Source: Candidatus Omnitrophota bacterium (lineage in GTDB: Bacteria > Omnitrophota > Gorgyraeia > Gygaellales > Profunditerraquicolaceae). From it: a DNA stretch of 64,000 nucleotides. Made by a program: the position numbers and the translations under genes. The notes under the pieces are model-generated. The model saw nothing but the letters and a program-made list of their open reading frames with translations, was not told the DNA's origin and did not search any database. Shown here piece by piece: positions 18,001 to 45,000 of this stretch; positions within the stretch are counted from its first letter, which is position 1; every line of letters starts with the position of its first letter. The stretch spans positions 10,228 through 74,227 of the forward strand of contig JAUYBI010000041.1 in assembly GCA_030693145.1 (NCBI GenBank), read 5' to 3'.

Positions 18001-21000
18001 CAAATACAAGCAATAAAGAGCCTAAGGATATTGTTGGAGATTATATGAAATTGGGCTGTCGAGCTGTTTTAGCCCATCCTAGTTTCGAACTGTATGCTGT
18101 CAGTGAATTAGAAGTTAAAGATCACGGCAGATTCTGGAATGAAGTTAGCGAATTAGTTAAGAGGGGATTTATTCGCGCCGTAGGCGTAGTGGGTTCAAAA
18201 GAAGAGAGGGAAAAGATAGAGAAAGATGTATATAGCTTAAGAAAACTGGCCGGCAAAACCGAAGATGAATTACCGATGGTTTTCAATAACCCCGATTATC
18301 ATGGCAAGGATTACCCGAAAGATACAAGGGAAAGCATAAGAAAAGGTGTTTTGTATGAAGTGGAAGATGATAAAGGAAAAATAGTAGAGTTTTATTGGGC
18401 GTGGGAAGATGTATCGGCGCCTGATTTTAATAATTATTTCAAGGACGGCGAATTTCTGGCGGAACCATTTGTCAAAAAGGCGCAGGAACAGATAAATAAT
18501 CAAGATTACATCGCTGCCCTAGAAACCCTTAAGGTAGCTTACAGAACTCATCCGTATGGCCAGCGTCTAGAGGAGTTATTTTCGAAAGCCCATAAAGGGA
18601 TTGGTAAAGCTGTATCCAAATATGAAGATGGAGGAACAAAATTCAGCAGTTTATTATACAAAGCAAATACAAACGTAGCATTAAATACGATCGCCAAATT
18701 CAAAATAAATGTTGAGGGGTACAAATTAGTATCGGAAAAAGGTGATCTTGAATCTAGAAAAATATCAATGCTTGAAGAAATTTTACAGTCTTTATTTAGT
18801 GAAGTATTTTTAGCTCAATATTTTCCGAACTGTGTTCCTGCGATTGAAGTAGTATCCGGCCTGGGCAGCCTTTACTGTGCAGATATTTCTAATAATATAA
18901 TCTTTTTAGATAATGAATTATTCCGGTCTGAATCGCTTCTTCTTATGGAATTGGAATCTGGATTTAGGCGTTTCCTACCTAAAATTTTAACGGAAGATTG
19001 TCTTGAAGAGTTGTTAAACATTATTTACGAAACGAATCGTTTCTTGAAATTAGGTGATGAAAAGGGGAACGAAGTGTTAACTACTTTGGGTGAAGGTTTA
19101 GATGTTAAAAACTTCCGTAAAATATTTGAGTTGGCTAGAAGTCAAAGAAAAGTAAATGATGAAGTTATTAATGGTGCTATTAGATATTTAGGATACTTAA
19201 ACATTGATTTAGAGAATTTAATCCAAAATAAAGATGAAAGTTTTGTTAAAGAACAAATATCAGATATAAAGGTGGGATTAGTTAATATTGAGTTAATGAT
19301 GACTTCTTCGTATACTCTTTATCAGTTAAAGAATAATCCGCAGACATTAGAGCATGGCGTGACCTGTATAATTAGGATACCCGAAGGAAGCGAAATCAAT
19401 TCCAAGATAGTTATTTTGAATAATAAGATCGATGAAGTTCTTAAGTCTATCATTGAGCCTGAGCAAAGGCAAATAATTAAATTAAAGAAATATGCGGCAA
19501 ATCAAATCCACTCTACAATAAGTCCAATTGTGCGCGGGCAATATGGCAAAGGAAACGAAGAAAATCAGAGAAAAGGGATTGAAGGTGATTTTGGAAAGGT
19601 TAGAATTTATGAAGCATTAAAGACTATTTCAGGAGTTAAGCCTTTTTGGATATCTTATTCTAAGTCGCCTAAACTTAAGATTAATGGACATGGCGAGATT
19701 TTACTTTGGGGAGATTCAGAGCCTACCCAAGATGGAGTAAATCAATTAGAGAAGCTCCGAGGGGAATTTATTGATAAAGGAAAAGCAAATTTTGACGGTA
19801 GAGATAAAGGTACTAAGATGCATGCGACTGTGGGAACGATTGAAAATTATCATCTCTTAACCCGTGGACAGAGAGAAGGGTTGGCAGGAAAGATAAATAG
19901 TGTATTGGATGATTTAGGTAATTTTGGCTCGTTAGAAGTTTCTGATGTATTCTTTGTTCATTATGGAAACAGAGGATTATTTAAAATTCAAAGCCAGGTT
20001 AAAATTCGGCTAGGAAGCGGCCATAACAGCTTAATGCAACATGAACTTCAGGATCTAGCAGACAAGATTGGAAGCGACTTGTTAAATCAGGGGACAATGG
20101 AGAAGCCTTGTTTGGGTGATTATACAATAAAAATCATGGATTTGTTATTAAAACAAAAAAAAGACGGTGGAAAGAAAGAACGCGTTGAACATAAATTCAG
20201 CACCAGTGGTATTCGCGGCTTAGCTGAAGATTTGACTGATATGCAGTGTTATATCAATGCAAAAGGGTTTATTAATTATTTGATTAAGATAGGGGAACTC
20301 AGTAATGCAATGGCAATCGCGGGAGATTTAAGATATAGCACGCCAAGAATGATGAGAGCGGTTGCCAGGGCGATAGAAGACAGCGGTTTGAAGGTGGTTA
20401 ATTGCGGTTTTATCCCATCACCGGCGCTATTCTATTACGCGATGCTAAAAGGTATCGCCAGTATTATGATTACAGGCAGCCATGTCCCGGTTTTACTTAA
20501 TGGCATAAAATTCAGCAGAAAGATTGGTGAAATCGCAAAGGATGACGAAGTCGGAATTTACGAAGAGATTCTCAAGGTTCGTAAGGAAGAATATGAGAAA
20601 CATAGTAAGAGGCCTTCGGAAAGTTTATTTGATGAGAAGGATATGTTTAAAGTAACTAAACCGTTAGGCGAGATTAATGATGAAGCGCGAAGGTTTTACG
20701 TGGAACGCTATCAGTACGTTTTCTCTTCGGATTGTTTAAAGGGCAAACGCATTGTCGTGGATCAATATAGCGCTGTAGGCAGGGATATATTGGTTGAAAT
20801 ATTGGAGAAGTTGGGCGCTGAAGTTATAGCTGTTGGAAGGTCGGATGAATTCTCCGCCAGGGATACTGAAAATATGCCTCCGGAATTATTGGCTTATTTT
20901 AAACACTTGGCAGAAAAATACAACCATCCGTTTGCTATTATATCAGCGGATGGCGATACTGATAGGCCTATTGTGTGTGATGAAAATGGTAAGTTTTATA

Positions 21001-42000: not shown

Positions 42001-45000
42001 TCCAAGTCGCGCTTGACTTTGTGGAAGCAGAACCGGCGTTAAAGGTTGCCCGAGAGGCTTATTTAGGCGGTGTAGATTTTATTGAGGCAGGTACACCTTT
42101 GATTAAAGCATTAGGCATGTCTGTGGTAAAAGAGGCAAAGCAGAATAATCCCGGTAGATTGATCGTAGTTGATATGAAGCCAATGGACACAGGTAAGCTT
42201 GAGATGGAAATAGCGATTAAAGCAGGAGCAGACATTGTAATTATCCCTGGCATTGCGCCGTTATCCACCTTAAAGGAATGTGTTGAGGCAGCACAAACAG
42301 CAGAGGCAGGATTTGATATCCTAAGAAAATTATTGATAGAAACTGGGCAAGAATATGATATTCGTCTTGATTCGTTTTTTGCTGTCGACAATATGGATGG
42401 AGGTATTAATAAGCGCATTAAAGGTTTGATATGGAAATCACTTTTAGACCACGGGGAAGTTTACAACATTGCTAAGAAACATTATGGGGAAACCAATAAA
42501 AAGATATTGATTATCAATGCGGATACGCATGATGATAAAAGCAAAACTAATTCTCCGAATGAAAGCAGTTGGGCTTGGTATTTAGAACAGGAAGATATTG
42601 CCAGGGTAGTTCATATGCCTTCTTATTATAATCAAGATAAAGGGAATAGGAATGAAAATAATTGGCGTACTCCGGAAATAGAAAAAGAAATTTTGTTAGC
42701 GGCAAAAGAAGCGAAGGAAAATGAATGGGGGATTTGGCTCACCATAGATTTTGATTTTTTTTCTTTTAAAAAGGTAGAGGTTGAATATGGACAGGTGTAT
42801 GCGGATCATACATTCAGTACAGAGGTTATGTACGATATGGATGAAAATGAAGTATCAAAAGAATTAACAGCGATGGTGAAATTTTTTAATGATAATAAGA
42901 TAATTATTAGTAGAATTATTCCTTGTGAATCAAGGAGATATTTAGCGAGCGCAGTTGTGAAAACTCCTGTGGGGTTTGATTATTATGAATGGGATGTTTA
43001 TGAGAGATATCCTAAGATTGAAAAAGGGATAGATCTTTATTGTGAGATGATTAGAAAAAATATTATTTCGTTTTTTGGTAAGATGTCAACGCTTAAAAAT
43101 TATGAGAAAAAAGAAGATGAACCGTGTCTTTCTGATGGAGGTATTAATCATGAAAAAGAATTTTCGATATTTGATAAAGGGACTGAAGGTCCTAGGTATG
43201 TTGGCGAAGATGGCGGAAGTAATCAAAAGTTAGAAGTCAAAGTTACTCCTTTCGAGGCGATTGACATACTTGTAAAACACGTAGATGGGACTGTCTTTAA
43301 AGGCATAAATTTTGAAGATGCCTACAAGTTATTCGGCATGATCTTAGAAACAATTCAGGCAGGAGGAGAAATTCATTACATCGCGGCAGGCAGAAGCGGC
43401 CAGGCAGCGAGTATTTTTGCAATTTTACTTAATGAATACGCAAGAGACGCCTTTGGCAAGCCGGTAGTTATCCATAGGATAAGCGCGGACGATTATTTCC
43501 CGCCGGTTAAAAAGGATGGGTTAGTTATAGGAATCAGCGGCTCAGGTTCAACGCCGTTTGTGAATGACAACTTGGCACTGGCAAAGGAATTAGGGGCAAA
43601 GATCGTAGTTATTACCGCAAAACCGCAGATTTGGCAGAAGAAAACAGAAAAGCATCCTGACGTAAACGATGTTGTCCCGGATTATTTAAATATTCCTGAT
43701 GTTTGGGCAAAAGCGGTGTTTAGCAGGATAGGAAAAAAGGCAGATGTGAAGATTATGTATACAAGAGGCGGATTACGGCTGGCAGAGCATAATTTATTGA
43801 TTGAGAGCTTAAAAGAAGCTTACAAAGGCCTGGCTAACGCTCCGCCGGAAATGGTGATACCTCTGGTTATTTCTTATTATTTCCCCCGCCCCGCCAGCGT
43901 TAACAGCGAATTAAAAATCAACCGTAATTTACTTAATACCGCTAACCTTGCCTGGAAAGCAAGCTCTGCCTTAAAACTTGCTCTTCGTAAAGAAATATTC
44001 CCGCATGAGTTGGAGCACTGGATTCAAGGTGATCTTACTACTGAAAGAGAGATACTCGCTAAATCATCAAATAATTTTAAGTCCCAGCCTGAAGTTTTAA
44101 GGGCATTGTTGTATCTTTATAATAATAAGGTAAACGGGTTTGTTTTGGATAAGCAGTGGAGGGCGAATCTAGAATTAATCAGCGCGCGAAAAGCACGCAA
44201 ATCCTTACAAGACGGCGGGGAGAGGCGAAGCAGCCTTGCTCAACGTTTAACCGCTGTTACCAAAAGAGACCCGCTAGAGGTTATTCTTTGTTATTATGCG
44301 GCAAATTCAAGATGGGGTTCAATAAGACGGCTTTCTTCAGATGGCCGGATACCTTTAATCTTTACAAAGATTAAAGGTTGGTTTGGTTCGCGATTAGCGC
44401 GGCTCATTTCAATATTTTTTTGGCTTAGTTCAGCGTCATTCTCGACAATAAACACAATCAAAGCATCCGTTGGAATTCTTTCTTCCAAATCCGGGTGGTT
44501 AATAATATATTTAGAAAACTCATGGTTTATTTCGAGATTCTTTTCAAATAATTCTTTTTCAGTCATTTCGCGCCTCCTTCAAATTACCTCTTACCATAAC
44601 CTCAAGTTGTATGACAAAACTTATGATATCATTCTTCAAGCGGCTATGCGAATATCGCCTTCTCGTATCTGGAATCAGTTTGGCAACATAGGAAATATTC
44701 TGAGGCTGCATAATCGAAGTATAGCTAACTTTTTTAATAATGTCAAGTTTGATGAAGGTAGGATAAAAATAAGGCTTGAGAAAAAAGACGGAGCGGTTGC
44801 TCAAACTAAGGAACTTGACGGGGGGGAGATCCTGGGAGTAGATAATAATCTCCGCCTACCTTTATATGACTTTTCGCGGGCCGAGCCGGAAAAATGGTCA
44901 ATGCGTACCGCCAGAGTCCCGTGGGTAGGCGGCGCAAAATTAGTAATAAAATTTGCCTGGCAGAATAGGCCTCGCGAAGAACAAATTATAATGCTGGAAA

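Follow-up and report, generated by a model that had tools for sequence, protein, structure and literature searches.

Giant multi-enzyme genes leave one wondering what use a cell can make of a protein that exceeds 20,000 amino acids. The question is raised again by the locus studied here, a stretch of 64,000 nucleotides (the window) from a Candidatus Omnitrophota bacterium (GenBank assembly GCA_030693145.1, contig JAUYBI010000041.1, positions 10,228 to 74,227 of the forward strand), in which a single open reading frame (ORF) strings together a set of hexose-phosphate enzymes at positions 20163-44210. Our best reading, to which we give a probability of roughly 0.55, is that this frame encodes a self-processing polyprotein that is cut at the tripeptide Asp-Gly-Gly (DGG), the cleavage itself being something that we infer. 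The analysis offers a countable border motif, a candidate protease family and relatives with different motifs, and in this way the question becomes testable.

The reading frame itself is the simplest part of the answer. Frame +3 runs through 21,332 codons without a stop and is open at both ends of the window; the remaining five frames hold between 712 and 2294 stops each, and within 20163-44210 the other two forward frames have 657 and 841. In every DGG-bounded segment the forward frame is also preferred by a codon-usage score that was trained on the clearest enzyme modules of the ORF. Very probably a single giant gene with functional enzyme modules extends across the window and beyond it, the 64 kb seen here being an internal part. 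A preliminary description of this DNA, made from its letters, had already stated that the enzymes share a frame and lack starts and stops of their own, which was correct and understated, the whole window being free of stops. That this picture stems from a chimera in the assembly or from a wrongly called frame is hardly conceivable: we found no point in its support, a stop-free run of this length is beyond chance where each neighbouring forward frame has more than 1,800 stops, and relatives from independent assemblies share the same architecture.

What does this frame encode? We count some 15 enzyme modules in the region 20163-44210, the majority complete and under selection (Table 1). Modules were called by Pfam and NCBIfam profile searches, with NCBIfam scores set against the curated cutoffs. 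These searches supported most of the families named in the preliminary description, and with them its main claim of a coherent enzyme set around glucose-6-phosphate and fructose-6-phosphate. The phosphoglucomutase/phosphomannomutase (PGM/PMM) was recovered, as were three phosphoglucose isomerases (PGIs), one divergent and two classical. For the divergent copy we obtained no Pfam match; it reaches 155 bits with NF007080, and in its alignment to the PDB entry 1zzg (E 1e-9) the motifs SKSGTT, GGRF and EESLGK are aligned. The two classical copies pass the NF001211 cutoff of 492 bits by a wide margin (848 and 815 bits), and the closest solved structures of PGI-1 are the bacterial PGIs 3hjb and 3nbu (~790 bits), which we take to be the Vibrio cholerae and E. 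coli enzymes. PGI-2 shares 82% of its amino acids with PGI-1 across 576 aligned codons (78% in the BLASTP alignment), dS between them is 0.76 and dN/dS 0.15, and both keep DWVGGRYS and the glutamate of MESNGK. A 24-amino-acid in-frame partial duplication in PGI-2 (nt 30195-30266) copies the segment holding the GGRYS active-site loop.

6-phosphogluconate dehydrogenase (6PGDH; NF007161, 279 bits against a cutoff of 271) and 6-phosphogluconolactonase (6PGL; TIGR01198, 147 against 124) were likewise found as described. The hexokinase is of the two-lobe eukaryotic type, and its alignment with human HK2 shows the NMExG glutamate and EKMxSGxYLGE to be conserved. The shikimate-dehydrogenase-like module is present as well, scoring 60-90 bits with aroE-type models, all under cutoff, and so is the N-acetylglucosamine-6-phosphate deacetylase NagA, which falls just short of its cutoff and carries HIEGPW, GHT, THxYN and TDA. 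The histidine phosphatase and the interleaved DUF89 phosphatase and two methyltransferases gave Pfam matches; the signature motifs of PGM, 6PGDH, 6PGL, NagA, histidine phosphatase and DUF89 are present in the sequence.

Other parts of the preliminary description have to be revised. The proposed ROK glucokinase has no match in Pfam (PF00480), NCBIfam or the PDB and lacks a CxCGxxGC motif, and a BLAST comparison with the ROK-bearing relatives P0241 and P0242 gave no similarity. The ribulose monophosphate pair does not hold either. Its 3-hexulose-6-phosphate synthase (HPS) is right as to the family but is half a barrel and not a complete enzyme (TIGR03128 positions 1-101 of 205, 93 against 200 bits; Pfam OMPdecase positions 3-104 of 221), and its 6-phospho-3-hexuloisomerase (PHI) comes down to a generic SIS match with 35 bits to HxlB/TIGR03127, where the cutoff is 160. 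Full-length modules are a property of PGI-1 and hexokinase, for example, but not of every module. The oxidative pentose-phosphate branch is represented by 6PGL and 6PGDH but is not complete, no glucose-6-phosphate dehydrogenase being found in the window, and the claimed redundancy is real for the three PGIs, while at least two hexose kinases are supported where at least three sugar kinases had been counted.

Judged from their sequences, the modules of this region probably interconvert or repair hexose phosphates. Hexokinase would turn glucose into glucose-6-phosphate, PGM/PMM would turn glucose-1- and mannose-1-phosphate into the 6-phosphates, and the three PGIs would convert glucose-6-phosphate to fructose-6-phosphate. 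6PGL and 6PGDH would lead from 6-phosphogluconolactone through 6-phosphogluconate to ribulose-5-phosphate, NagA would yield glucosamine-6-phosphate from N-acetylglucosamine-6-phosphate, and the DUF89 and histidine phosphatases may serve in sugar-phosphate clean-up.

The modules appear to be of heterogeneous ancestry. The PGM module groups with fusions (~970 amino acids) of phosphomannose isomerase and PMM (PMI-PMM) from uncultured lineages, its nearest relatives (45-53% identity) including proteins of Omnitrophota and ANME-1, and the divergent PGI is best matched by the PGI half of transaldolase/PGI fusions. The hexokinase has its best database match in a fragment from an Omnitrophota metagenome-assembled genome (MAG) that holds two tandem hexokinases (51% identity), followed by vertebrate hexokinases at about 40%. 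Homology searches with PGM and the divergent PGI returned ordinary PMI-PMM fusions only and no giant relatives, and no close relative was found through the hexokinase module in genome, metagenome and viral collections. Natural fusions such as HxlAB (HPS-PHI), transaldolase-PGI and PMI-PMM consist of two domains and have a start and a stop of their own; unlike these, the locus joins more than 15 enzymes in one frame, and the partners transaldolase, PMI and the second half of HPS are missing.

A further possibility is that the gene is a decaying graveyard of captured gene copies, or an open frame whose products are unimportant. Half an HPS, a partial CofD, the duplication in PGI-2, a stretch of 31 amino acids (aa 4175-4205) that repeats the beginning of another module and several junk-like segments are looser traits that would fit it, and for the 3,462 amino acids encoded by nt 44211-54596 no homologue could be detected among 5.8 billion proteins. 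We nevertheless consider a graveyard very unlikely, and the preliminary description, which had named this outcome as one that would speak against it, is upheld here. The dN/dS values of internal paralogues are low (0.15 for the PGIs and 0.21 for two PHP-containing paralogues), catalytic motifs are intact in all three PGIs, hexokinase, PGM, 6PGDH, 6PGL and NagA, several modules lie above curated cutoffs, and there is forward coding signal in every segment. The homologue-free stretch is explained in part by antisense cassettes, and its remainder has normal forward coding signal.

How are the modules set apart from each other? The tripeptide DGG occurs 53 times in the window against 5.8 expected (9-fold; aa 649, 2487 and so on to 21192), and no such excess is seen for related tripeptides. 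Every copy is in frame, and the other strand has none. The domain stretches recognized by Pfam or NCBIfam contain not one of the 53 (P about 1e-8); most are found 2-40 amino acids off a domain edge, and the positions flanking them hold almost no information. The segments bounded by DGG fit full-length enzymes, as in PGI-1, which covers nearly the entire model, or hexokinase, with both domains end to end. DGG also bounds mini-segments, the half HPS barrel and five segments antisense to toxin-antitoxin operons. Segments of 5-31 amino acids stand between tandem DGGs at 12525-12617, 25908-25922, 37800-37865, 43134-43208, 45987-46028 and 50064-50141; one pair reads DGGSFDGGS, and at one site DGG is followed by DNGG.

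It might be argued that DGG has no role in the protein and is a scar or target of module insertion or shuffling at GACGGCGG-like DNA sites, an explanation that could coexist with cleavage. GACGGCGG accounts for 30 of the 53 sites although GAC makes up just 23% of Asp codons, and direct repeats sit at DGG codons. For instance, a 17-nt direct repeat, GACGGCGGCTCCTTTGA, stands in exact copies on either side of PGI-1, at 24108/25908. As to the codons, however, 18 synonymous combinations are used and all of them encode D-G-G, so that the constraint acts on the peptide; GACGGCGG has no out-of-frame or minus-strand copies. Its preference is mostly a matter of C-before-G context, C-ending codons being favoured ahead of a codon that starts with G throughout the window: GAC is used in 48% of cases before Gly (23% overall), and GGC in 55% for the first Gly of other GG dipeptides (31% overall). 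We have therefore rejected a separate nucleotide-level signal at DGG, since other DG and GG dipeptides show the same preference. The boundary repeats have no conserved hairpin, and in relatives the codons of the border motif vary while the peptide is kept. For these reasons a role of DGG at the protein level is probable, and a DNA-level scar with no such role seems unlikely. Shine-Dalgarno sites or internal starts at the DGG codons were also considered and dismissed: GGAGG occurs at just 8 of 53, with no enrichment of Met, Val or Leu after the tripeptide.

The repeats deserve description of their own, as those flanking module blocks are anchored on DGG codons, which suggests that modules are still being inserted or shuffled at these places. 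In addition to the pair around PGI-1 there is a 96-nt repeat (92%) at 12525/15759 around a 3.2-kb block, a 35-nt repeat (86%) at 45987/47178 and a repeat of ~50 nt at about 43185-43233 / 45513-45561. A 47-nt family ends in DGG codons (...CCGCTCAGCGCGCCTTGACGGCGG) and encodes the peptide (D/G)RSARLDGG. An attC-like nature of the boundary repeats was rejected, as just one of four folds better than its shuffles; no integrase domain was found in the window, and the locus does not qualify as an integron cassette array.

If DGG is a signal in the protein, what might read it? Self-comparison of the translation brought out a paralogous family at aa 4206-4446, 4975-5252 and 12869-13195. Each copy forms its own DGG-bounded segment with HE(E/K/D)GH and a downstream E-x-x-A, two of them lying within the 3.2-kb block mentioned above; degenerate look-alikes stand at the N-terminus of the divergent-PGI segment and in the unannotated module at 39588-40655. 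The family has no Pfam match at E<=5, and a profile of its core no PDB sequence match at E<=10. In a profile search of 1.84 billion representatives the module was present in only about a dozen proteins. A degenerate DNA pattern search in genomes mostly returned random high-GC matches and three true ones, and in metagenomes it returned nothing; the named genomes in which the module was found are two Omnitrophota MAGs and one Elusimicrobiota MAG. Across an alignment of 12 homologues H46, E47, H50, E73 and A76 are nearly invariant, and one Gly and one Trp vary little or not at all. The predicted structure is compact (pLDDT 87), and a fold search with the trimmed core gave similarity to minigluzincin/M48 peptidases; with the whole 327-amino-acid segment helical-repeat matches dominate, and this query was discarded. 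Among known systems it stands closest to the minigluzincins proabylysin (4jiu), projannalysin (4jix) and selecase (4qhf) and to the M48/M56 catalytic domains of Ste24/ZMPSTE24, BepA and BlaR1. It shares with minigluzincin, M48 and M56 zinc peptidases the HExxH motif, the downstream Glu ligand and the fold, but does not match their family models in sequence.

The carriers of this module allowed a comparison between loci, which were ascertained by searching with the HExxH module. The larger carriers are multi-module proteins, and all but one of them have a single over-represented border motif of their own (Table 1); those with a motif come from an Omnitrophota MAG and from four metagenome or assembly contigs. 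These motifs are mutually exclusive between loci, a pattern that would be expected from a genome-specific pair of protease and site, and in two loci they are common to adjacent genes. In L001 the motif DNGG stands at module borders in all four consecutive genes (>1025, 2554, 744 and >402 amino acids), and every NGG is part of a DNGG; the punctuation therefore belongs to the genome and not to one gene. L077 has the order PFK / UDPGP / HExxH / methyltransferase / starch synthase. A further locus of a Candidatus Omnitrophota MAG (L079; JBAZEP010000027.1, 1-8000, minus strand) is one open frame with a weak HExxH module (E 8e-8) and, in the same frame, a C39-like signature (NCG...H) and a SecA-like region, both recognized by eye only; it links the HExxH family to domains reported by West-Roberts et al.

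We propose the following scheme. The giant ORF would be translated as a polyprotein and cut at Asp-Gly-Gly into its enzymes, singly or as small fusions. The same DGG cuts would free fragments and junk spacers, and with the spacers excised, insertions at the junctions would be tolerated. Candidates for the processing enzyme are the minigluzincin-like HExxH...E modules of the same ORF, three of which are intact in the window; an alternative cutter would be a double-glycine (C39-type) peptidase encoded outside it. The parts of this scheme differ in strength. That the bond broken lies at DGG itself has about even chances, and that the embedded HExxH modules do the cutting is rather doubtful, though they are the candidates at hand.

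The other way to understand such a protein is that it stays uncut, with one scaffold holding the enzymes as a covalent metabolon and DGG acting as a flexible hinge between domains. The order of modules is biochemically coherent, scaffolding modules of the HEAT and TPR type occur in the same giant ORF, some enzymes are joined without DGG, and published descriptions treat such products as multi-domain proteins. A hinge, however, needs neither an invariant tripeptide without flanking preference nor a strict motif that differs from lineage to lineage, and a mature protein of this kind would hold antisense-derived junk, half-domains and remnants of 5-31 amino acids between tandem DGGs. The data fit a polyprotein with a genome-specific pair of protease and site better than a passive hinge in four points: the tripeptide is strict and without flanking context, it stands only at module borders, the relatives have lineage-specific motifs (in two loci across adjacent genes), and peptidase-like modules are embedded. 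An uncut mega-enzyme thus seems to us improbable, if still worth serious thought.

Several observations weigh against processing at DGG. Several enzyme junctions have no DGG, namely those within the shikimate-dehydrogenase-like/6PGDH/6PGL, kinase/DUF89 and methyltransferase/ASKHA segments. To our knowledge no minigluzincin is D-G-G-specific. The Elusimicrobiota locus L067 carries the module and has no obvious motif, and neither has the Omnitrophota hexokinase fragment P0001. The related loci, all found by way of the HExxH module, come without a module-negative control, and their motifs were chosen post hoc by k-mer counting. Finally, the DGG-anchored direct repeats allow a DNA-level origin of the motif.

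Directly after 44210 the frame takes an unusual course. On the minus strand of 44211-51902 lie small, intact toxin-antitoxin-type genes, all with a stop, most with a Shine-Dalgarno sequence and ATG, and with Pfam scores above gathering except for the DUF7718-like one. Every antisense unit is wholly within a single DGG-bounded segment. The forward translations of these segments are rich in Ser, Arg and Leu, have no homologues and give the lowest coding scores of the window. Still the giant frame has no stop over 2,564 codons here, where the other two forward frames have 204 and 251. In the four antisense genes that share its codon register no TTA, CTA or TCA occurs among 29 Leu codons, whereas the out-of-register DUF5615 has TTA in 8 of 21; the giant frame is therefore kept open by selection. 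Coding on both strands over such a length, with selection visible, would be out of the ordinary. The antisense strand of the related loci showed nothing beyond junk-like ORFs.

Possibly these findings extend beyond one gene. As a tentative generalization, for which we claim somewhat less than even odds, giant bacterial ORFs might be cellular polyproteins with a lineage-specific cleavage code (DGG, DNGG, KSFPAG, SSP[LI] or [LI]GSN) that is read by a co-evolving, embedded minigluzincin-like peptidase. Such an ORF would tolerate captured fragments and antisense operons, whose codon usage keeps the frame open and which may guard the gene against deletion.

Table 1. Features of the window (positions in nt unless stated) and border motifs of related loci.
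Feature	Position or locus	Strand	Evidence and remarks
Continuous ORF, 21,332 codons; internal piece of giant gene	3..63998	+	0 stops; codon-usage score
DGG tripeptides at or between module borders, 20 counting the 3'-border one	20163..44212	+	
HExxH module, second intact copy	12618..13340	+	HEEGH at aa 4339
HExxH module, third intact copy	14925..15758	+	HEKGH at aa 5153
PGM/PMM, full length, DGG-bounded	20163..21806	+	Pfam PGM_PMM I-IV; TGSHVP, DGDTDR, GWEANGG, RPSGTAP
N-terminal region of ~135 aa, then divergent PGI (22218-23687)	21807..24107	+	Degenerate HExxH-like HKATE in N-terminal region
Classical PGI-1, full length	24108..25907	+	Pfam PGI 793 bits; NF001211 848 bits, positions 6-541/544
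Shikimate-dehydrogenase-like (26013-26810), short-type 6PGDH (27225-28484) and 6PGL (28770-29408), one DGG-bounded segment	25923..29483	+	
Classical PGI-2, PGI-1 paralogue	29484..31307	+	815 bits
S-adenosylmethionine (SAM) methyltransferase	31308..32264	+	Pfam Methyltransf_11/12/23/25
PRK/uridine-kinase-like P-loop kinase (32394-33008) and ARMT1/DUF89 phosphatase (33252-34061)	32265..34448	+	Pfam PRK 27 bits, ARMT1-like 126 bits; NCBIfam damage-control phosphatase model under cutoff
Eukaryote-type hexokinase, full length	34449..35801	+	Hexokinase_1 221 bits, Hexokinase_2 230 bits
SAM methyltransferase (35928-36398) and ASKHA-like putative sugar kinase (~36615-37742)	35802..37799	+	Methyltransferase: Pfam 64 bits; putative kinase: generic ASKHA-type sequence motifs only
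Histidine phosphatase, branch 1	37866..38606	+	His_Phos_1 87 bits; RHG and second His
TPR-like N-terminus and minigluzincin-like HExxH...E core (38979-39311)	38607..39587	+	HEDGH, aa 13038
Unannotated 356-aa module	39588..40655	+	No Pfam or NCBIfam match; degenerate HExxH-like HEATE, aligned with the HExxH family; forward coding score 0.17
NagA-like N-acetylglucosamine-6-phosphate deacetylase	40656..41975	+	TIGR00221 199 bits (cutoff 226), positions 5-380/380
N-terminal half of HPS/OMPdecase-fold barrel	41976..42395	+	140-aa DGG-bounded segment
Unannotated 246-aa module	42396..43133	+	No Pfam or NCBIfam match; forward coding score 0.23
SIS-domain module (43341-43637) with C-terminal HELEH (~44004)	43209..44210	+	Pfam SIS 38 bits
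Antisense units: DUF5647 (+ DUF7718-like); HicB-like (+ hicA remnant); DUF2283; HicB + HicA; DUF433 + DUF5615 (PIN-like)	within 44294-51782	-	
Copies of 47-nt repeat	50295-50341, 50886-50932, 51864-51910, 54558-54604		Two flank the hicBA unit
L001, four consecutive genes, GC 35%	ENA ERZ27250193 k141_32638		DNGG, 9 vs 0.1 expected
L003	P0241 and next gene		KSFP[AV]G, 9 vs 0 expected
L077, 8 kb all open	Candidatus Omnitrophota MAG		SSP[LIVF], 8 vs 0.2 expected
L007, whole contig one ORF	GCA_014384055.1		[LI]GSN, 5 vs 0.1 expected

Viral polyproteins and MARTX toxins are made as one translation product with junction motifs that end in GG or AG and with an embedded protease, and yield separate products. 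The locus would resemble them in its single translation product and in the release of separate proteins; it has a short conserved junction motif (DGG) and, if the HExxH modules are proteases, carries these in the same chain. It differs from them in its sugar-metabolism cargo in a cellular genome, in its at least 53 junctions and in a candidate that is a zinc gluzincin and not a Cys/Ser protease.

The class of gene has been described before. Giant genes of Omnitrophota have been reported as Archaeovorins (West-Roberts et al. 2023, bioRxiv 10.1101/2023.11.21.568195) and as class 1 multi-enzyme metabolic clusters (bioRxiv 10.64898/2026.06.07.730766). According to these accounts the giants contain PGM/PMM, glucose-6-phosphate isomerase (GPI), hexokinase, ROK-type kinases, radical SAM enzymes, methyltransferases and HEAT/TPR modules, and proteolysis by C39/S8 is suspected with cleavage points stated to be unknown (10.1101/2023.11.21.568195; 10.64898/2026.06.07.730766). 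The window is like the class 1 giants in its ORF of at least 10,000 amino acids, its many enzyme Pfams with none dominant and its sugar-metabolism content: more than 30 distinct Pfam families occur, PGM, PGI, hexokinase, radical SAM and methyltransferases among them, each in at most 2-3 copies. Its hexokinase has its best match in an Omnitrophota MAG, and the HExxH module has carriers among Omnitrophota as well as Elusimicrobiota MAGs; taken by themselves, these matches make it likely that the gene comes from Omnitrophota or a neighbouring lineage. It is unlike Archaeovorin or dockerin-type giants in that no dockerin, C39, S8 or SecA Pfam domain was found within the 64 kb.

While the architecture is thus already described for Omnitrophota, the DGG punctuation, the HExxH module, the motifs of relatives and the antisense operons look new. 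Neither published account of Omnitrophota giant genes mentions a motif that punctuates the chain, a module of the minigluzincin type or antisense genes nested in the frame, and a punctuation code, a candidate protease and nested antisense operons were not found in the literature searched. Relative to the preliminary description, what has been added is the known class of the gene, the zinc-peptidase-like segment at 38607-39587 and the antisense operons right after 44210. Motif and protease together name exact peptide bonds to seek in metaproteomes and short substrates for in vitro tests. If the protein is indeed cut, annotation ought to divide such ORFs at the motif, which may bring to light upper-glycolysis enzymes that now seem to be missing from these lineages; of 176 genomes, 25 were reported to have hexokinase and 67 PGI (10.64898/2026.06.07.730766).

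Some minor features of the window remain to be mentioned. Rfam and tRNA scans of the window were empty, promoter-like sites are overall no more frequent than in shuffled sequence, and hydrophobic stretches are few and mostly in antisense-derived or PEMT-like segments. HEAT-repeat modules are located at 52461-54596 and 56433-59897, with internal repeats of ~114 nt and a 27%-identical paralogue, in agreement with the HEAT content reported for Omnitrophota giants. Upstream of the hexose-phosphate set, the sugar-modifying enzymes of the preliminary description were all recovered: a B12-radical SAM enzyme, DegT, a fucokinase-like GHMP kinase, an adenosine-5'-phosphosulfate (APS) kinase (228 against 139 bits) and a partial CofD/YvcK. 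Behind the APS kinase comes a PHP-domain module that is similar to 3',5'-bisphosphate nucleotidases (together 7461-10388), and a paralogue of the PHP part with 49% identity lies at 15759-18626. APS kinase and PHP module could be a sulfation side-branch that runs through 3'-phosphoadenosine-5'-phosphosulfate (PAPS).

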